Both the position numbers and the translations under genes were made by a program. Positions 39,643 through 60,129 of a stretch of DNA of 64,000 nt are shown here, piece by piece. A model generated the notes under the pieces. It saw only the letters and a list, made by a program, of their open reading frames with translations. It made no database searches and had not been told where the DNA came from. This DNA comes from Mobula hypostoma (Eukaryota). Positions within the stretch are counted from its first letter, which is position 1, and each line of letters begins with the position of its first letter. Location of the stretch: the NCBI RefSeq assembly GCF_963921235.1, contig NC_086108.1, positions 9,610,001-9,674,000 of the forward strand. Reading direction: 5' to 3'.

Positions 39643-41669
39643 ACGACTCTCTGGTTTACAACATATACATGGTTTACCACAACGACTCTCCGGTGCTTCC
39701 CGCTCCCTCCCCTCCCGCTTCTCTCTCTCAGTCCACAATAGGGACCCATATCAGAATCATGTCATAAAATTTGTTTTTTTTTGCAGCAGTACAGTGCAAT
39801 ATATAAAATTATTACAGTATTGTGCAGAAGTCTTTGGCACCCTAGCTTTGTATATGTGTCTAAGACTTGTGCATAGTACTGTGTGTTTGTGTATATATAT
39901 AACAAAAACTGTAAATTACAATAAGAAATATGTAGATATATATATATAACTACGTATTTCTTATTGTAATTTACAGTTTCTGTTGTTAGGTATTGCAGTG
40001 TACTGTTGCTGCTAAACAAGAAATTTCACAACATATGTCAGTGATATTGAACCTAATTCAGATTCAGATTTTGTCCCGAAGAAGAGGAGGGGAGTTTCGG
40101 GAGAGACCTGGGATGGTTGTACATTCTTAACCGGCAACACGGGAGGGACTGTGCGGTCCTGATCCCCTGGGCGAGGTGGATGAGGCCGGCCGCGAGAGAG
40201 TGGCCCGGGGAAGGGGAGTGAGTGCGGCCAGGACCCTGCCACGAGGGAGCAGGACACGGCGGGATGGCAGGGTCCCTGGCAGGAGCAGCGGTTGGGTTCC
40301 ATTTCTGTGGATATTAACTCATCAACAGCGCTCAGAATAGAGAGACTTGTGAAACACAACAGATGTGCCTTCAGGGCTTGCCAGGATTGTGTGGCAGAAG
40401 CAGTGACTGAAGAGGCGATTCGCTGCCTGTCTCTCCGTGCTTCCCGACCATCACTCCACGTGGACTGAGGGTCCAAGGGCAACCCGTGGGGTTTTCGACG
40501 CTGGGGGAGAGGGGGCAGTGAATTTGTCAGCTGCAGGCATCCACGCCTGGCGCCAGCTTCCTACAGGAGATACCATCACTGAGTTATCTCCGACCCCCAA
40601 CCCCCGCCCCCCCGAGACATGCAGGGGCACCTCAATCCGGTGGGTGCAGTCGGAGGGGTTCCCCACACTCTCCGCCACCCTGTGATTCTTCCTGTCAACT
40701 TCCTTGTCCAACAGCCCTGAGTATAACTCCATTCTCAGACAGACAGTCCTTGGGGTGGGGTGTGGGAAGAAAGGAGAAGGGGCGTTGGTTGGCCTGCGCC
40801 CACAGGTTCTGTGGGTATTCCAGTGGCTGAGGGATCTCCAGTGAGATCAGCAGGCGCTTTCTCTGATAGAGAAGCTCAGGGCAATACTGTCACGTCAGAG
40901 AATCAGAGCCTGGTAACAACCTTCCCACCATTTCATCCTCCCCACATTCAAATCAAATCAAGTTTAATTACTTTTCAAACCATACATGATACAGCTGAAC
41001 GAGATGGAATTCCTTTGGGGCCAAGATGCAAAACACACACGCGCATTCAAAATAGCAAAAGAGAGAAAGAGAACATAGTCATGCAAGTAAACATATTTTT
41101 AGTCCAAGACCCTGAGCGACTGTTTCTGCAAAATAGTGGTTCCAGGCAGTCCAGCCTGTAATTCCACTGATCCACCAGTGGAGGGCAGCACTGACAGGAG
41201 AGGCCACCCCGAATTGAGCATGAAGGCCACGCTACACCGCCTCTGGCATCTCCTCACCTGGACTACAGCAGCAGGTAAGCCTACGGCTTGAGACCTATCA
41301 ACTCCATTTTATTTGTCACATCTACGTCGAACCATACGTTTTATAGATGTCTGTGAAGATGTCAGAATCACGGTTAATATCACTGGCATATGTCGTGAAA
41401 TTTGTTAACTTCGTGGCAACAGTATAACAGGGCAGTAGCTGAGGCAGCAGAAAAAAGATCAGCATGGGTGTGGACCAAGTATGTCCAGAGGGGCAGATAG
41501 TCAGACAGTGTATACGTATCTTGTAAACCCTTCAGTAGTTGCATAGACACCTGAAGAGCAGACTATCTGTTGTATGGAAGTGACCAACAACTCTGATAGA
41601 GACAGATGCCAAGTTTTTAAGCTCACCAGTGGGAGGTGGTGCTTTAGCACTGCTGGCCCACCACCTCGA

Positions 41670-41736
41670 GGGAGTCTTGATCATAAGTGGGCCGAAACTC
41701 CTGAAGACAGGTGGCAGATCAACTGATGATCCCACT
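41670..41736 (+). ncRNA. Putative non-circularly permuted hammerhead ribozyme (copy 1)
   Basis: GGAG-UC / GAAA-CUCC (stem III); UUGAUC / GAUCAA (stem I); CUGAUGA core; CCCACU / AGUGGG (stem II). Predicted cleavage after C41676. Confidence 0.7.
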
Positions 41737-41826
41737 GGTGATAGCACAGGACAGTTAACATCTTAGTCTAAGTGTATTTTGTAACTCTTTTGTTCTGGAC
41801 ACCAGTGACTACCAGGAATAGTCTGG

Positions 41827-44800
41827 TTGGCAACCTGGAATAGTCCGGTGACAGCGTGGAGAGACAGCGGACAGCCAGGAAAGACTAGCACCGGGGGTGT
41901 CAGGATTGGCAGTCCGGGCACCAGCTCAGAAGGGCACCCACCTCTTGAAGCTTCTAGTCTACATGGAGAAACATACCCTCGGGGTCCTCTGAGAGGGAGG
42001 GAGAATGATGGACCCAATCGTATGGATACAGTTAATTACAGGGAACGACTACGACTGAGGGCTAGGATAAGAGGCTCTGAGTGTCCAGTGTGTTGGTGTG
42101 GGAGAGCGTTTTCCAGCATTAAAGGTTTACAAGTCCACCAAGCAAAGCTGAAGTGCTATTCCATCCCAGTGGATGAAGATGAGGTTTCTTCACCAAGCAC
42201 AGATGATGTGGTCTTTTCAACCACTGATTCACAAGCCACAGCGATTCGCTCTGGAGAGAGTCATCATACTCCAGGTCAGATGAGAGATAACCCAGGTCAG
42301 GTTTGAGACCACAGTACCCAGGTAGATCCTTCGCATGATGGCGGTGGTGAGGAGGTAGAGAAGAAGAGGAAGGTCAAGTGACCAGCAATGGTAGATGAGA
42401 AGGCTTGGCGTGTATTTGATGAGGATATCAGTATGATGTTGGAGAACATTCTCAGGGGAACATCAAAGAGAAAGTTGGAAGTGATGGGCGATATGATTTA
42501 CGATGTTGGAAAGTACAGGTTTGGTTTGGTTGAGTTGAAGAAAACAAAGCCTACACAGCAACCAAGCAGGCGCCAGAAGGAGATTAGCAGGTTGAGGAGA
42601 GAGCTTAGATCATTGAGACAGAGGTGGAAGGTAGCAAGTGAGGGTGACAAGCCAGGGCTTGCTGATCTCTGAGAGCATTTTTGAATAAAGTTAGCATCGC
42701 TCTGTCGTGCAGAGTCACAACGTAAAAACAGAAAGAAGAGAGAGAAGGCAAGAAAGTCGTTCTTTGAGAACCCTCACCAGTTCACAAAGAAACTGTTTGA
42801 ACAAAGTAAGAGCGGGCAGCTTAACATCTCTCAACAAGAACTTGAGGATCACCTGGCAAGCACTTACTCGAACGAACAGCGGGAGGCTCCTTTGCTTGAC
42901 ATTTCAGGGCTTGTGAAGCCTACCAAGCCAGGAGTGAAGTTCAATCTGTCAGAACCCAAACCGGCAGAAGTCGAACGGTTCATCAGAAGGGCAAGGTCAG
43001 GCTCAGTGCCAGGACCTAATGGAGTGCCGTATAAGGTGTTCAAGAAGTGTGAGGAGCTGAGGAAATACTTGTGGAGATTGTTAAAGGTGGTGTGGAGACA
43101 AGGTGTTGTTCCTTTGTCATGGAGTGAGGCTGAAGGAGTATACATCCCGAAGGAAGAGAATTCTTCTACATTGAATCAGTTCCGACCATTTTCACTCCTG
43201 AAGGTAGAGGGGAAGATTATGTTTGGCATTCTGGCAGAAAGAATATCTTCATTTGTGATAGGGAATGGATTAGTAAATACATCTGTGCAGAAGGCAGGAA
43301 TACCAGGCTTCCCGGGATGCCTTGAACATTCTAGTATGATATGACATACCATCCAGGAGTCGAAAAGGTTGAGAAGAAATCTGGCTGTAGTTTGGCTTGA
43401 TCTGGAAAATGTGTATGGATTTGTTCTCCATGTCCTGATTGAGTTTGCGATGGAATTCCTATGGATTCCTGCTAAGGTGAGGAACTTTGTTATGCAGTAC
43501 TACAACAATTTCCGGATGAGGTTTTCCACTCAGCAGTTTACAACTAGGTGGCAGAGCTTGGATGTTGGAATCCCAGTGGGATGTGCGATTTCACCCATCC
43601 TTTTTGTGTTAGCCATGGAGGTCATTGTGAGGGCTGCAGAATCAGTGGGACCAGGTGTCGCACATGATGGCAGAGGGGAGTTACCACCAATACGAGCGTT
43701 CATGGACGATCTCACCCTTCTGGGTCCCAGCACGGAGGCAGTGGAAAGTGTACTATCTAGACTCGAGGAACTAATGGATTGGGGAAGAATGAAGTTCAAG
43801 ACCAAGAAGTCAAGGAGCCTTGTTCTTAGGAGAGGAAAGCTGGTTGACTTTCATTTCACCCTTTCTGGAGAGGAGATTCCATCCATTCAGGACCAACCAG
43901 TTAAGAGCCTCGGGCGATGGTACACAGAGGAGCTGAGAGACACCAAGAGGGTTCAAGAGACAGAACAGATCAGCAGAGGTCTGATGTCTGTTGACAAGTG
44001 TGGCTTGCCTGGCAAGTTGAAGTTGTGGTGCTTGCAGTACAGACTGATGCCACGGATAATATGGCCACTAACTGTCTATGAAGTGCCAATGTCCCATGTT
44101 GAGGCAATGGAACAGAAGATCAACAAGTATGTGAGGAAGTGGCTTGGAGTACCGAGCAGCCTCACCAATGTCACAATCCACAGTAGCCAGACAAAGCTTA
44201 CCATCCCAGTGCAATCCCTTGTTGAGGAGGTCATGGTAGTCAAGGTAAGATCATTCTTGATGCTTCGAGACTCAAAAGACCCTGTCATCAAGAACACCCA
44301 GCCGGATGTGAGATCAGGGAGGAAGTGGTCAGCCCGTGTAGCAGTGGATGAGGCAGAGTCTAGATCGAAGCACAAGGAGATGGTTGGGGCTATCCAGCTA
44401 GACCGCCAGGGACTTGGATGGACAACCCACAAGTGGTGGTCATCTTCTACAGGTAAGGAGCGCCGTGAGCTTGTAACACAAGAAATATAAGAGGTAGAAG
44501 AGGAGAAGAGGTTAGCTGAAACAGCTGGCCTGGCCAAACAAGGGGCTTGGACCCGGTGGGAAAGTGTTGAACAACGACACCTATCTTGGAATGTTCTGTG
44601 GCAGATGGAACCGCTCCGCATTTCTTTTCTATGCAGAGCAGCGTACAATCTGCTCCCAACACCTGCCAACCTCAGCACCTGGTATGAAGATAAGACAGAC
44701 AGGTGTGCAGCTTGTGGCGAGGAGGAACACTTCAACATATTTTCAATGTATGCAGAGTCAATCTTTCCAGCGGCATGTACACTTGGAGACATAACAATGT

Positions 44801-45362
44801 TCTCAAAGTTGTGACAGAAGCGGTTGAGCAGAGAGTACTGCAGCACAACTTATCTCATGCCCCATGCTGCGCAGAACATCGCATATCATTTGTGAAAGAA
44901 GGCTCCAAGTCAAGGGTGTACAGCGCAGGCTCACGATCAAGCATACTTTCTTCAGCCAATAATTGGTGTGTCAAGGCTGACCTGGATGGGAAAAGCAGTT
45001 TCCCGGAGCAAATAGCTTTCACCACATTGCGTCCAGATATAATCGTATGGTCTGACACCAGTAGAGAAGTGGTTATTGGTGAACTCACAGTCCCCTGGGA
45101 AGACAACATCGATGAAGCCCATGAGCGCAAGTTAACCAAATATGCAGAATTAAGATCAGAGTGCAGAGACAGAGGGTGGAAGGTCTCATGCTATCCATTC
45201 GAAGTAGGCTGCCGTGGGTTTATTGCGTTCACTCTCCAGAAGTGGCTGCGTGACCTTGGCTTCACTAGAAGAGAGATCAAGTCAACTAGCTGGGCTGTAG
45301 CTGAGGCAGCAGAGAAAGGATCAGCATGGGTGTGGACCAAGTACGTCCAGAGGGGCAGATAG
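41827..45362 (+). pseudogene. Disrupted RT-RLE polyprotein ORF of the HERO-like element
   Basis: Same-frame segments broken by stops (e.g. 42304, 42379, 42670, 43342, 44488) and a frameshift near 44720. Confidence 0.85.
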
Positions 45363-45531
45363 TCAGACAGTGTATACATATCTTGCCAACCCTTCAGTAG
45401 TTGCATAGACACCTGAAGGGCAGACTATCTGTTGGATAGAAGTGACCAACAACTCTGATAGAGGCAGATGCCAAGTTTTTAAGCTCACCAGTGGGAGGTG
45501 GTGCTTTAGCACTGCTGGCCCACCACCTCGA

Positions 45532-45598
45532 GGGAGTCTTGATCATAAGTGGGCCGAAACTCCTGAAGACAGGTGGCAGATCAACTGATGATCCCACT
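45532..45598 (+). ncRNA. Putative non-circularly permuted hammerhead ribozyme (copy 2, in the 3' UTR)
   Basis: Identical to copy 1 at offset +3862; predicted cleavage after C45538. Confidence 0.7.
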
Positions 45599-47199
45599 GG
45601 TGATAGCACAGGACAGTTAACATCTTAGTCCACGTGTATTTTTTTTTAACTCTAATGAAATACATGATAAACAGAGAAAAAGAAAATTACGGTAAGTATA
45701 TACATGTACTTTGTATATTAAATAGTTAAATTTAAAGTAGTGCAAAAATAGAAATAATAAAAGAAGTAGTGCTAATGGGTTCAATGTCCATTCAGAAATC
45801 CGATGGCAGAGGGGAAGAAGCTGTTCCTGAATCACTGAGTGTGTGTCTTCAGGCTCCTGTACCTCCTCCCTGATATAATTCATTATGGGTTATAGGGTTG
45901 AGAAGGTATTGCTTGGATTTCCGGCATCTGGAGATTTTCTTGTTTGTAAAACTAAGTAGACCTATTTCCTGGCTCCCATGTTTTTTCTTTCAATTAGTTT
46001 TTGGAGTTGCAAAACGTAACAGAGGTGACACAGCTGTCCTGTTCCTCGATCTTCTGGTGACATGAACGTTCCTCTGTTTCTGCTCTTCTTCCCAGATGTG
46101 CCCCCGTCCACTTCACATTCCCACTCCAACCCATCCTGGTCTGGTGATCAACACCTCCACCCACTCACCTGCCCCACCACCACTATTTTATCATTTCTTG
46201 TCAGTCACCTTATGCACAGAGATTCCTGTGCCTAGCATCAATTTATGGTGATAAAATCAATCTATATACATAATCTATCTTTTGTATCTGATGTGTTTTT
46301 ATTATTTTTGTGTTCTTTATCTTATTGTGTTTTGTTTTTGTGCTGCATCAGATCTGGAGTAACAATTATTTTGTTCTTCGTTACACTTTGTGTACTGGAA
46401 ATGATATTAAACAACCTTCAATCTTCAGTGAGGGAAAGGATAGCCAGAGAGTGGTGAATCTGTGAAATTCTTCACCACGGGCAGTAGTGGAGGCCAAGTC
46501 ATTGGATGTACATAAGGCAGAGGTTGATAGATTCTTGATTAGTCAGGGCATGAAGGGATTTGGGGAGAAGGCAGGAGACTGGGGCTGAGAGGGAAAACGG
46601 ATCAGCCATGATGAAATGGTGGAGCAGACTCGATGGGCCAAATGGCCTAATTCTGCTCCTATATCTCATGGTCTTGAGGTATAAATGGTGCAGGCGCTTC
46701 TTTGTCAGTTGGTGGCGCTGTGGGACCACAGCACAGCCCAATGCCGCCAGTCCTGGAAAATGAGCCCACTTTGTGTTTGTGACAGAGTACTTAACACACA
46801 CTGATCCGGTCACTGACACTATACAACAGGCTGGGAGGTGTTCTTGAGTGAAGTATATATGCTGATGTGTGTAAATCTGGTTAAAATGCCTAATAGTCTG
46901 CTAATCACATATTCCGACATATCACTTTCTTCAACACAGGGGTGTGGATGGTATTCTTTTTAATATCCTTGCTGAGGTATGTTACTCTGCTAATGTACTA
47001 CTGTGGTGTGTTAACAGAAGTGTTGGTACGTCACTGTTAATGTGTGTATTCCACTTAAGGAGAGAAGTAGACCGTTTGGCCCAACAAATCTGCTCCAGCA
47101 TTCCAACATGGCTGATTTATTATCGTTCTCAACCCCATCTCCTGCCCTCTCTGGGTAACATTTGACACCCTGACTACCAAGAACCTACCAACCTTCTGA

Positions 47200-49540: not shown

Positions 49541-52297
49541 CATAGAAACATAGAAACATAGAAAATAGTTGCAGGAGTAGGCCATTCGGCCCTTCGAGCC
49601 TGCACCGCCATTTATTATGATCATGGCTGATCATCCAACTCAGAACCCCGCCCCAGCCTTCCCTCCATACCCCCTGACCCCCGTAGCCACAAGGGCCATA
49701 TCTAACTCCCTCTTAAACATAGCCAATGAACTGGCCTCAACAGTTTGCTGTGGCAGAGAATTCCACAGATTCACCACTCTCTGCGTGAAGAAGTTTTTCC
49801 TAATCTCGGTCCTAAAAGGCTTCCCCTCTATCCTCAAACTGTGGCCCCTCGCTCTGGACTTCCCCAACATCAGGAACAATCTTCCTGCATCTAGCCTGTC
49901 CAATCCCTTTAGGATCTTATACGTTTCAATCAGATCCCCCCTCAATCTTCTAAATTCCAACGAGTACAAGCCCAGTTCATCCAGTCTTTCTTCATATGAA
50001 AGTCCTGCCATCCCAGGAATCAATCTGGTGAACCTTCTTTGTACTCCCTCTATGGCAAGGATGTCTTTCCTCAGATTAGGGGACCAAAACTGCACACAAT
50101 ACTCCAGGTGTGGTCTCACCAAGGCCTTGTACAACTGCAGTAGTACCTCCCTGCTCCTGTACTCGAATCCTCTCGCTATAAATGCCAGCATACCATTCAC
50201 CTTTTTCACCGCCTGCTGTACCTGCATGCCCACTTTCAATGACTGGTGTATAATGACACCCAGGTCTCGTTGCACCTCCCCTTTTCCTAACTGGCCACCA
50301 TTCAGATAATAATCTGTTTTCCTATTTTTGCCACCAAAGTGGATAACTTCACATTTATCCACATTAAATTGCATCTGCCATGAATTTGCCCACTCACCCA
50401 ACCTATCCAAGTCACCCTGCATCCTCTTAGCATCCTCCTCACAGCAAACACTGCCACCCAGCTTCGTGTCATCCGCAAACTTGGAGATGCTGCATTTAAT
50501 TCCCTCATCCAAGTCATTAATATATATTGTAAACAACTGGGGTCCCAGCACTGAGCCTTGCGGTACCCCACTAGTCACCGCCTGCCATTCTGAAAAGGTC
50601 CCGTTTATTCCCACTCTTTGCTTCCTGTCTGCTAACCAATTCTCCACCCACACCAATACCTTACCCCCAATACCGTGTGCTTTAAGTTTGCACACTAATC
50701 TCCTGTGTGGGACCTTGTCAAAAGCCTTTTGAAAATCCAAATATACCACATCCACTGGTTCTCCTCTATCCACTCTACTAGTTACATCCTCAAAAAATTC
50801 TATGAGCTTCGTCAGACATGATTTTCCTTTCACAAATCCATGCTGACTTTGTCCGATCATTTCACCGCTTTCCAAATGTGCTGTTATCACATCCTTGATA
50901 ACTGACTCCAGCAGTTTCCCCACCACTGACGTTAGGCTAACCGGTCTATAATTCCCCGGTTTCTCTCTCCCTCCTTTTTTAAAAAGTGGAGTTACATTAG
51001 CCACCCTCAATCCTCAGGAACTAGTCCAGAATCTAACGAGTTTTGAAAAATTATCACTAATGCATCCACTATTTCTTGGGCTACTTCCTTAAGCACTCTA
51101 GGATGCAGACCATCTGGCCCTGGGGATTTATCTGCCTTCAATCCCTTCAATTTACCCAACACCACTTCCCCACTAACATGTATTTCCCTCAGATCCTCCA
51201 TCTCACTGGACCCTCTGTCCCCTACTATTTCTGGAAGATTATTTATGTCCTCCTTAGTGAAGACAGAACCAAAGTAATTATTCAATTGGTCTACCATGTC
51301 CTTGCTCCCCATAATCAATTCACCTGTTTCTGTCTGCAGGGGACCTACATTTGTCTTTACCAGTCTTTTCCTTTTTACATATCTATAAAAGCTTTTACAG
51401 TCCATTTTTATGTTCCCTGCCAGTTTTCTCTCATAATCTTTTTTCCCCTTCCTAATTAAGCCCTTTGTCCTCCTCTGCTGAACTCTGAATTTCTCCCAGT
51501 CCTCAGGTGAGCCACTTTCTCTGGCTAATTTGTATGCTTCTTCTTTGGAATTGATACTATCCCTAATTTCTCTTGTCAGCCACGGGTGCACTACCTTGCT
51601 TGATTTATTCTTTTGCCAAACTGGGATGAACAATTGTTGTAGTTCATCCATGCAACCTTTAAATGCTTGCCATTGCATATCCACGGTCAATCCTTTAAGT
51701 GTCATTTGCCAGTCTATCTTAGCTAATTCACGTCTCATACCTTCAAAGTTACCCCTCTTTAAGTTCAGAACCTTTGTTTCTGAATTAACTATGTCACTCT
51801 CCATCTTAATGAAGAATTCCACCATATTATGGTCACTCTTACCCAAGGGGCCTCTCACGACAAGATCGCTAATTAACCCTTCCTCATTGCTCAAAACCCA
51901 GTCCAGAATAGCCTGCTCTCTAGTTGGTTCCTCGACATGTTGGTTCAAAAAACCATCCCGCATACATTCCAAGAAATCCTCTTCCTCAGCACCTTTACCA
52001 ATTTGGTTCACCCAATCTACATGTAGATTGAAGTCACCCATTATAACTGCTGTCCCTTTATTGCACACATTTCTAATTTCCTGTTTAATACCATCTCCGA
52101 CCTCACTACTACTGTTAGGTGGCCTGTACACAACTCCCACCAGTGTCTTCTGCCCCTTAGTATTACGCAGCTCTACCCATATCGATTCCACATCTTCCCG
52201 GCTTATGTCCTTCCTTTCTATTGCGTTAATCTCTTCTTTAACCAGCAACGCCACCCCACCTCCCCTTCCTTCATGTCTATCCCTCCTGAATATTGAA
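49541..52297 (-). mobile_element. Young 5'-truncated CR1 LINE; ORF2 intact except for one 1-nt frameshift at ~51008
   Basis: ORFs 51007-52254 and 49640-51010 join at VPED|WRVANVTPLFKKG; YLDFQKAFD, PQGSVLGP, FADD; (ttctatgt)n tail; GAATAAA at both flanks (49534-49540, 52295-52301). Confidence 0.95.
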
Positions 52298-52387
52298 TAA
52301 AATAGCTAATAGACTACGTAATTAAAACAATGATGTCACATGTGTAATGTGCTAATACCTAGCCAATGAAAAATGAGAAAGGTGATA

Positions 52388-58755: not shown

Positions 58756-60129
58756 AGGATAGCAGAAGGTAGCAGAAGTTATGGCGATTGATGTGCTGGA
58801 TGCAAAGCCTCCCATTGTGGGTTAGAATCAGAGCAAAGCTTCCTCTACTGTCTGTCAGATTCTCGCCGTGGGACAGAGATGCTCCGAGGGTGAAGACAGC
58901 AAAGGGCTTAGGGGGTGCACGAGGAAGGGCCAGAGTCCAGGGCCTCTTGGCAATGAACGGAAATTCGTTAACATTGGTGTATTAACCAGTCTACCTGCCA
59001 TCAAGGATGTACACACAGAAAGAAGCCACCCACCTTGCTCATAGACTGTTTGTCTCCCTCCCATCAGGGAGGAGATTTTGCAAAATCCACACCAGGACCA
59101 TCAGACTCAAAAACAGTTCCTTTCCCCTATCAGTAAAACTGATCAACACCTCCACCCACTGACCCACCCCTCCACACCCACAACCACCACTACTTTATCA
59201 TTTCCTGTCAGAGTCACCTTATGTACAGACAGTCCTGTGCCTAGCGTCACTTTATGCACATACAATCAGTCTATGTATAGAAGCTACCCTACGTATTTAT
59301 ATTTATTGTGCTTTTTCATTATTGTGTTCCTTGCCTTACTGTGTTTTTCTTCTGCTGCATCAGATCCAGAGTAACAATTATTTCATTCTCCTTTACACTT
59401 GTGTACTGGAAATGATATTAAACCCTTAAATCTTGACTCGTAGAACCCCAGAAACTACTTATTTGTAACTGGGTGATGACTGATGATGTGATTTGTTCAG
59501 GAATGGAATAATATTACTTGTTATAAAACTTGTTACTTACACTAATTACATGTACTAATGTCGTTATGTCTATTTTTCTTTATTTGATCATGTAAGTTAT
59601 GTATAATTTATGTTAATTTAAGTTTATGTTAATTAATATTGTCATGATTGTTATGTATTGTACTGTTGCAAAAAATGCTAATTTTCATGACACTTACAGC
59701 TTGAGTGGTACACCCAGTGGCCACTTTATTAGGCACATCTGTTCGTTAATGCAAATATCTAATCAGCCAATCACATGGCAACAACTCAATGCATAAAAAC
59801 ATGTAGACATAATCAAGAGGTTCAGTTGTTGTTCAGACCAAATGTCAGAATGGGGAAGAAATGTGATCTAAGTGACTTTGGCTGTAGAGTGATTGTTGGT
59901 GCCAGATGGGGTGGTTTGAGTATCTCAGAAACTGCTGACCTCCTGGGATTTTCATGCACAACAGAGGTATAAAGTGGACAGTGGGAGTGGTTTTGTTGTT
60001 GCATGGTCTTCAAAGTTTAAGGTAATTTAATTATTACAGTACCTATATGCCACCATATACAACCCCAGATTCAGCTTCTTGCGGGCATTCACGGGAAAAT
60101 AATGAAATAAAATAGAATTTACAAATCAA

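Follow-up and report, generated by a model that had tools for sequence, protein, structure and literature searches.

A conserved, non-circularly permuted hammerhead motif in the 3' untranslated region of a restriction-like-endonuclease retrotransposon

Introduction

Hammerhead ribozymes have long been held to occur in three circular permutations, and a stretch of the genome of Mobula hypostoma raises the question whether their strands can also follow each other in an order that no circular permutation provides. In this stretch (64,000 nucleotides, positions 9,610,001 to 9,674,000 of the forward strand of contig NC_086108.1, assembly GCF_963921235.1; hereafter, the window), an earlier note made from the letters of the DNA had described a hammerhead with a non-circular, pseudoknotted strand order at 41660-41736, in the 3' untranslated region (UTR) of a retrotransposon. 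The computational analysis reported here leads us to conclude that 41623-41741 and a second region, 45485-45603, probably encode a hammerhead ribozyme with a previously undescribed strand order, which is located in the 3' UTR of a high-copy retrotransposon without long terminal repeats (non-LTR) and with a restriction-like endonuclease.

The earlier note had mentioned that natural hammerheads with non-circular permutations were already reported, and this is correct. They were published by Eckert, Friedrich, Weinberg and Weinberg (Nucleic Acids Research, NAR, 2023; PMC10085705), who divide the hammerhead into the blocks S (cleavage site), G (GAAA), and C (CUGAnGA) and assume that these blocks cannot be interrupted. 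Their type SGC (the HRIMA-1 motif and its variants) comprises 583 sequences, five of which were shown to cleave, while type CSG is represented by two sequences, with cleavage shown, and type GCS was left in doubt. Approximately three bases connect stems I and II in type SGC, and a fourth helix ties their other sides; mutations revealed that this stem I/II helix is required for the cleavage of SGC-3. All permuted examples originate from assembled metatranscriptomes (Supplementary Note 1) and are probably derived from small circular RNAs.

As S-G-C is also the layout drawn in the earlier note, the class as conceived there is not new. The non-circular hammerhead class is already known from 2023, and it is the form with a split block C that is not reported in the literature found. 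There, we encountered no report of a hammerhead in which CUGAnGA is separated from stem II, and none of a hammerhead in restriction-like-endonuclease retrotransposons; most subscription papers lie outside this coverage, and an earlier report is possible in both cases. A paper from November 2026 (PMC13725137) cites, in its accessible part, only Eckert et al. and one other work for 'alternative permutations'.

Fold of the motif in the window

All sequence stretches on which the earlier reading was based are present within 41671-41736, namely GGAG (41671-74), UC (41675-76), UUGAUC (41677-82), AGUGGG (41686-91), CC, GAAA (41694-97), CUCC (41698-701), GAUCAA (41717-22), CUGAUGA (41723-29), U, and CCCACU (41731-36). 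The triplet GUC at 41674-76 represents the N-U-H cleavage-site triplet, and in this copy of the window the three helices drawn from these strands are indeed Watson-Crick paired. Furthermore, the core elements UH, GAAA, and CUGAnGA flank the helices correctly, and the strand order is non-circular and pseudoknotted, as had been claimed. The extent of 41660-41736 is too short, since it lacks the 5' strand of stem II, a hairpin, and the closing helix, all of which belong to the full motif (41623-41741). The following parts were assigned, with the core bases given in hammerhead numbering:

41623-41634, plus strand: 5' strand of the closing helix P_a (UCACCAGUGGGA), pairs with 41730-41741
41635-41654, plus strand: hairpin H, between P_a and stem II, with zero unpaired bases at both ends
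41655-41659, plus strand: 5' strand of stem II (GGCCC), pairs with 41689-93; G41655 is G10.1
41661-41666, plus strand: 5' strand of helix IV (CCACCU), pairs with 41709-14
41667-41670, plus strand: linker CGAG, the shorter strand where helices IV and III meet in a kink-turn-like junction (NGAG in 34 of 57 distinct relatives)
41671-41675, plus strand: 5' strand of stem III (GGAGU), U41675 being U16.1; stem III is formed by 41671-75 and 41697-701
41676, plus strand: C17, with cleavage predicted 3' of this base by analogy with hammerheads
41677-41682, plus strand: 5' strand of stem I (UUGAUC), pairs with 41717-22
41689-41693, plus strand: 3' strand of stem II (GGGCC); C41693 is C11.1
41694-41697, plus strand: GAAA (G12, A13, A14, A15.1), conserved core
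41698-41701, plus strand: 3' strand of stem III (CUCC), with covariation over 57 sequences
41702-41708, plus strand: linker UGAAGAC, long strand of the kink-turn-like junction, pattern N-NNN-GA-N
41709-41714, plus strand: 3' strand of helix IV (AGGUGG), pairs with 41661-66
41717-41722, plus strand: 3' strand of stem I (GAUCAA), with covariation over 57 sequences
41723-41729, plus strand: CUGAUGA (C3 to A9), conserved core
41730-41741, plus strand: 3' strand of P_a (UCCCACUGGUGA), part of which had been misread as a strand of stem II

Read from 5' to 3', the strand order is therefore P_a 5', hairpin H, stem II 5' (starting with G10.1), helix IV 5', stem III 5' with U16.1 and C17 (the predicted cut site), stem I 5', stem II 3' (ending with C11.1), GAAA, stem III 3', helix IV 3', stem I 3', CUGAUGA, and P_a 3'. 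This order corresponds to type SGC rotated as a circle and opened between A9 and G10.1, with block C being split. P_a comprises 12 contiguous pairs, the first of which (A41634-U41730) directly follows A9, and CCCACUGGUG is a perfect complement of an upstream stretch; the closing stem of hairpin H comprises 9 pairs in the window, wobbles included. P_a and H hold the opened backbone together between A9 and G10.1, and a four-way junction without unpaired bases is formed by P_a, H, stem II, and the core, while helix IV links the far ends of stems I and II. The T or C found at 41688 provides a sixth pair of stem II, past the usual five.

The 'U opposite CC' anomaly that had been noted at the core is an artefact, as the CC pairs with GG at 41655-56 and U41730 pairs with A41634. 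Likewise, five objections that had been raised early on (the lack of a G10.1-C11.1 pair, two extra C before GAAA, the lack of a fourth helix, a competing 10-bp helix, and a C.A mismatch in stem II) no longer apply to the revised fold, since they were due to the previous assignment of stem II. Nested minimum-energy folds were calculated for 41600-41790 and 41660-41745, in which pseudoknots are not representable, and the short piece folded no better than shuffled sequences (z -0.62).

A scan of the window with a motif descriptor resulted in 2 plus-strand matches, with U16.1 at 41675 and at 45537, and 0 matches on the minus strand. In 200 Mb of random sequence with the composition of the window, 1 match was obtained with the loosest setting (3, 3, and 2 bp) and 0 with the tighter settings, from which a chance rate of approximately 1e-4 per Gb-strand can be extrapolated, rather than measured, for 6+6+4 bp (with a factor of 4 per extra pair). 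The loosest descriptor used on the window (5+3+4 bp, G-U allowed) gave an extra match at 59380-59490 on the plus strand, where the covariance model described below had no match; this one is probably due to chance.

Conservation and covariation in related elements

Relatives of the element were obtained as 80 loci from metagenome contigs, which were retrieved with an alignment of the endonuclease domain (A2) and are 35-78% identical to the window protein. A covariance model (R1) with a structure consisting of helices IV and III only was built to escape our own selection of sequences, and it was searched against the window and the 80 loci (289,594 bases, both strands) with a threshold of E <= 0.01. 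This search resulted in 60 matches, all of them on the coding strand, including 2 in the window and matches in 58 of the 80 related loci. Among the loci with at least 150 nucleotides (nt) beyond the match to the open reading frame (ORF), 56 of 62 had an R1 match, and 16 of the 22 loci without a match have less than 150 nt beyond it. In most loci with enough downstream DNA, CUGAnGA is located 80-280 nt past the ORF match. A block-wise parse of the relatives revealed a single common architecture with differing helix sequences, in which the strand before GAAA has its partner upstream of the cleavage-site block and not in the strand after CUGAnGA.

The R1 matches correspond to 57 distinct sequences, to which the following counts refer unless stated otherwise. 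Across these, 94.4% of cells in the helices pair, compared to 61% in shuffles and 38-44% in slid controls, and cells with compensatory double changes are far more frequent than in shuffles (356 vs 92.7). The covariation score (0.814 vs 0.203) was reached by none of 500 shuffles. The 22 script-picked sequences of alignment A3 gave nearly the same values, with helices II, IV, III, and I pairing in 94.4% of cells (34-43% in slid controls) and a covariation score of 0.819 vs 0.206, which again none of 500 shuffles reached; the same pattern of covariation was found in alignment A4. Since the MAFFT alignments of the whole motif (A3 and A6) misalign P_a and the hairpin, both of these helices were measured by anchored scripts instead.

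Considering the helices individually, pairing was found in 95.6% of cells for stem I, 91.6% for stem II, 96.7% for stem III, and 93.9% for helix IV. Stems I and II are both outside the structure of the model, and in each of them 5 of 5 pairs change on both sides, as is also the case for helix IV (5 of 5 pairs). In stems I, II, and III, every pair varies on both sides except for the A-U pair. The least variable pairs are G10.1-C11.1 and A15.1-U16.1, as in hammerheads: among the 57 sequences, stem II begins with G-C in 45 cases and with G-U in 6, and A15.1-U16.1 is retained in 56. Starting from the first base after A9, P_a forms at least 7 contiguous pairs in 36 of the 57 relatives, compared to 9.4% when the 3' strands were swapped among loci, and a closing stem of at least 4 bp is present for hairpin H in 29 of the 36 relatives that have P_a.

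The core is similarly well conserved, with C3 found in 51, U4, G5, A6, and A9 in 55 each, G8 in 54, and G12 in 53 of the 57 sequences, while A13, A14, and A15.1 are invariant (57 of 57); the complete canonical core is present in 45. Position N7 varies freely (U 35, C 9, A 8, G 4), and H17 is never G (U 16, C 20, A 21). The assignment of the predicted cleavage site at C41676 holds. The fold and its conserved core are evident from these data, and the motif is a real, conserved, permuted hammerhead motif. With regard to the covariation in the 3' UTRs of relatives, which the earlier note had proposed to inspect, stems I and III stand as drawn, while stem II as drawn does not and is replaced by a stem II with an upstream partner.

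Within the family itself, contigs from four other organisms were compared. Among the rows listed, 41688 is the only position in 41603-41780 that differs at near-full depth in at least three runs (in fact, in all four), while several positions in 41460-41602 differ at near-full depth in at least three of the four runs.

Two side observations concern parts of the fold. The loop of hairpin H contains a 6-nt palindrome in 18 of 25 distinct hairpins (L046, L062, L074, L056, L065, and others), compared to 13% of shuffled loops; the palindromes are UGAUCA (14), UGGCCA (2), UCAUGA (1), and GACGUC (1). That self-complementarity is kept while the letters change suggests a putative loop-loop kissing interaction between two RNAs. 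The loop in the window (UUUA) has no palindrome, and UGAUCA is found instead in the strand of stem I (41678-83). Moreover, in L031, L032, L097, and L035, a G directly follows CUGAUGA, and the C beside GAAA is not paired by the upstream strand. In this subgroup, A9 and G10.1 may still be connected in the usual manner at the first pair of stem II, with a displacement of the junction by one pair, and the subgroup could represent an intermediate form.

A kink-turn-like junction

Kink-turns consist of a three-base bulge followed by tandem G.A and A.G pairs, located between a regular helix and a second helix. The junction of stem III and helix IV resembles this arrangement, with NGAG on one strand in 34 of the 57 sequences and N-NNN-GA-N on the other. 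In 35 of 57, both strands carry GA at the expected places; as to the flanking pair, G-C occurs in 30 and G-U in 10 of 57. Judging from this pattern, the junction may be a kink-turn. With such a kink, helix IV would be bent back alongside the core and reach the far ends of stems I and II, which would answer a steric puzzle that Eckert et al. (PMC10085705) raised for their own forms.

Alternatives to the revised fold

The fold proposed in the earlier note amounts to a type-SGC hammerhead within 41660-41736, in which AGUGGG (41686-91) and CCCACU (41731-36) make up stem II and a U/CC internal loop adjoins the core. All six pairs of this stem II are Watson-Crick in the window copy, and the S-G-C order, the short linker between stems I and II, and the U after CUGAUGA resemble the published descriptor. 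However, across 22 relatives these six pairs are found at the level of slid controls (45.6% of cells vs 38-45%). Such a helix of at least 5 bp is present in 4 of 46 loci, whereas the upstream partner forms at least 4 bp in 40 of 46. A comparison of L053 (GCCCC/GGGGC) with L037 (GCUCC/GGAGC) reveals a double change under which the upstream pairing is preserved and the drawn stem II is lost, the strand after CUGAnGA being identical. Moreover, the family majority has C at 41688, which breaks the drawn helix through a C.A mismatch without compensation: C is present in 20 of 31 copy rows, with a compensating change at 41734 in 0 of these 20; the exact genomic 28-mers number 524 with C, 107 with the T of the window, and 54 with CA, the partner form in CpG decay; and the contigs of the four other organisms have C at near-full depth. 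The perfect form of the drawn stem II is private to a minority of copies. Furthermore, this fold does not fit the published descriptor at CGAAA and at CUGAUGAUG. Taken together, we regard this fold as very improbable. An even smaller likelihood, close to none, is left for the view that the revised motif is merely a chance likeness within structured, repetitive sequence. It is true that the first-stage scan covered very many windows and that, in a high-copy family with its many mutated versions, the most convincing copy can be selected (here, the one with T at 41688). Yet, the expectation from random sequence is tiny, the core and four helices recur with differing helix sequences in 58 of 80 related loci and always on the coding strand, and in these loci the motif is found 16 to 408 nt (median 67) past the ORF match. 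As far as computation goes, chance is refuted by the covariance-model matches and the covariation.

The host retrotransposon

The region 41600-41800 belongs to a high-copy repeat of the 3.48-Gb genome (2318 candidates, of which 40 were scored and found to be 96-100% identical). In the window, the motif is present in two tandemly arranged copies of the element:

41428-41788, plus strand: 5'-truncated upstream copy of the element (end of the ORF and 3' UTR), 96.3% identical to 45292-45642 and adjoining the full-length copy
41789 to about 45652, plus strand: full non-LTR retrotransposon unit with RVT_1, CCHC, and RPD..E..K motifs
45485-45603, plus strand: a further complete copy of the motif, within the 3' UTR of the full-length element (67.2 bits for the model match at 45517-45591, which equals the first copy's score)

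The unit contains a single reading frame (41809-45362), which is interrupted by stops and a frameshift. It encodes a reverse transcriptase (RT) at 43345-44490 (Pfam RVT_1, E 8.6e-12), followed by the endonuclease part at 44694-45362, and the C-terminal CCHC, RPD, ELTVPWE, and K motifs do not vary within alignment A2. A Pfam match to an AP-endonuclease was absent from the 12 ORFs scanned. Based on these domains and motifs, we classify the element, which the earlier note had called HERO-like, as an R2-type non-LTR retrotransposon with a restriction-like endonuclease; its named relatives are from sea urchin, amphioxus, molluscs, and fishes. The placement of the hammerhead in a retrotransposon 3' UTR is borne out by this combination of an RT with a C-terminal CCHC plus RPD..E..K endonuclease in the ORF.

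In the second copy, the hammerhead core is complete as well, with a predicted cut after C45538. The predicted cut site is located 112 nt upstream of the 3' end of the element, and other genomic copies terminate near 41786-41788. In the four other organisms, copies of the family match to approximately 41780, followed by CAAT... and then by differing flanks; therefore, the final few bases of the element vary from one organism to another. Within the window, the junction between the 3' end of one element and the 5' start of the next lies within a run of four T (41788-91).

Comparison with known ribozymes

Among the nearest known forms is type SGC, with which the motif shares the core, the cyclic order of cleavage-site, GAAA, and CUGAnGA strands, a short linker between stems I and II, a fourth helix tying these stems, and at least two pseudoknots in the core. 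Helix IV occupies the position of the stem I/II interaction helix of Eckert et al. and agrees with the corresponding helix of the SGC descriptor (5' of the 3' strand of stem I and 3' of the 5' strand of stem II). The block order with linkers of 0-8 and 0-15 nt agrees with the descriptor as well (3 nt on the stems of the earlier note, and 15 nt). What is not found is a 5' strand of stem II directly after CUGAUGA(U)G, since the strand at this place pairs with the upstream strand of P_a. Thus, while the 5' strand of stem II immediately follows CUGAnGA in type SGC, it is located upstream of the cleavage-site block here, and P_a and a hairpin are placed between A9 and G10.1. Further differences are the additional kink-turn-like junction between stem III and the fourth helix, and the origin, which is metatranscriptomic for type SGC, as opposed to retrotransposon 3' UTRs in animal-type genomic DNA. 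With type CSG, the motif shares the order that runs from stem II 5' via stem III 5', UH, stem I, stem II 3', and GAAA to stem III 3', but in type CSG the strand of stem I and CUGAnGA come first and are joined to stem II, whereas they come last and are unjoined in our motif.

Penelope-like elements reportedly also carry hammerheads, as described by Cervera and de la Pena in 2014. As far as the available descriptions go, in both cases a retroelement with partial-tandem insertions carries a hammerhead in its repeated tail, with no ends seen at the cut site; the Penelope-like hammerheads are of type I with ordinary topology and accompany a GIY-YIG endonuclease, in contrast to the permuted motif and R2-like restriction-type endonuclease described here. 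In the accessible text of Frangieh et al. 2024 (PMC11167929), no reads end at the Penelope-like hammerhead site.

To our knowledge, the only ribozymes of non-LTR elements known until now are HDV-like and twister ribozymes at the 5' end. HDV-like ribozymes (R2, L1Tc, and other non-LTR elements) and the twister variants of Schistosoma are, like the proposed ribozyme, self-cleaving RNAs in non-LTR retrotransposons. In the sources as far as accessible, they belong to other classes and define the 5' end of the element RNA, whereas our motif is located in the 3' UTR, shortly before the 3' end.

The split of block C between A9 and G10.1, with the core held by a four-way junction, means that the allowed hammerhead topologies are wider than assumed and that searches with three-block descriptors miss the motif. 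It would also move permuted hammerheads from unknown metatranscriptome RNAs into animal-type genomes and place a ribozyme in the 3' UTR of R2-like retrotransposons that form a widespread clade. As a short RNA with many natural variants, the motif provides an experimental handle. Furthermore, it has a bearing on the way in which templates are made or marked by such elements, a matter of relevance to the current use of R2-type elements as gene-insertion tools.

Cleavage and the life cycle of the element

Because the catalytic pattern is conserved, we infer by analogy with hammerheads that the RNA would self-cleave after C41676, yielding a 2',3'-cyclic phosphate and a 5'-OH. After the cut, both products would stay joined by P_a, II, IV, and III through more than 25 base pairs, so that re-joining or copying across the nick is conceivable. 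In partial-tandem insertions, which are usual for this element, the upstream copy of the ribozyme might free the downstream element RNA from read-through transcripts, and uncut or re-joined RNA might serve as the template for insertion. A role as a handle for RT binding may coexist with such a freeing of transcripts.

Several points weigh against this interpretation, either with regard to the hammerhead assignment or to cleavage. We know of no precedent for a backbone break between A9 and G10.1. It contradicts the assumption of Eckert et al. (PMC10085705) that block C is uninterruptible. Rfam 15 offers no independent support, as no ribozyme match was obtained for the window at gathering scores, for 41000-42500 at E <= 10, or for 12 related loci at E <= 1; this is expected, because covariance models cannot hold the strand order of the motif. 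The seed sequences of alignments A3 and A4 were script-picked for having the helices, and the kink-turn assignment goes by a consensus pattern. By depth, G12 is changed to A in 67 of 297, 0 of 19, 5 of 12, and 24 of 38 in the contigs of the four other organisms; this position is a CpG, and the contig copies with the change are mostly dead copies. Genomic copies have no pile-up of 5' ends at the predicted cut site, a base other than C precedes U41677 in only 15 copies, compared to 524 with an intact GUC context, and the upstream site is read straight through in 22 of 52 copies that hold the first 25 nt of the unit. The suggestion of the earlier note that the ribozyme processes element transcripts is not supported by the ends of the genomic copies.

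These 52 copies (L126-L177) are from the same genome, and their junctions were read directly, resulting in the following distribution of 5' boundaries:

At or before 41435: 12 copies
41494-41626: 10 copies
41627-41690: 0 copies
41691-41788: 30 copies (four at 41691-95)

From this distribution, it follows that there is no defined 5' end at the start of the unit and that many templates span the upstream site. The boundaries show a step near 41691, which coincides with the base of stem II and follows the predicted cut by 14 nt.

Two further explanations concern the function of the fold rather than its existence. The fold could be conserved without any cutting, as a handle in the 3' UTR that is bound by the RT to start target-primed reverse transcription, with a hammerhead-like junction that was either kept or converged upon. 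This would fit the binding of structured, pseudoknotted 3' UTRs by R2-type proteins (PMC12222951, accessible part), the intact state of the site in all genomic copies at 112 nt before the 3' end and without a pile-up of ends, and the finding, in the available text on a Penelope-like element, that ribozyme-dead mutants insert like the wild type in vitro (PMC11167929). A scaffold alone, on the other hand, has no need for invariant G5, A6, G8, and G12, for a free position 7, or for an H17 that is never G, and this pattern of conservation fits the catalytic requirements of hammerheads. We consider a handle without cutting unlikely, although a role as a handle and a role in cutting do not exclude each other. 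More speculatively, the ribozyme might both cut and re-join, such that transcripts with two copies are trimmed to unit length and circularised, and the RT would then copy the circle beyond one turn. Copying of a circle would explain the fixed 3' end, the undefined 5' end at the start of the unit, and the frequent multi-unit insertions; if true, it would represent rolling-circle reverse transcription by an autonomous non-LTR retrotransposon, but we regard this as quite unlikely. The interpretation that we favor remains a hammerhead ribozyme that would cleave after C41676.

A neighboring element

Elsewhere in the window, two long open frames (457 and 432 amino acids) are arranged head to tail on the minus strand at 49640-52305, and they probably represent another retroelement.

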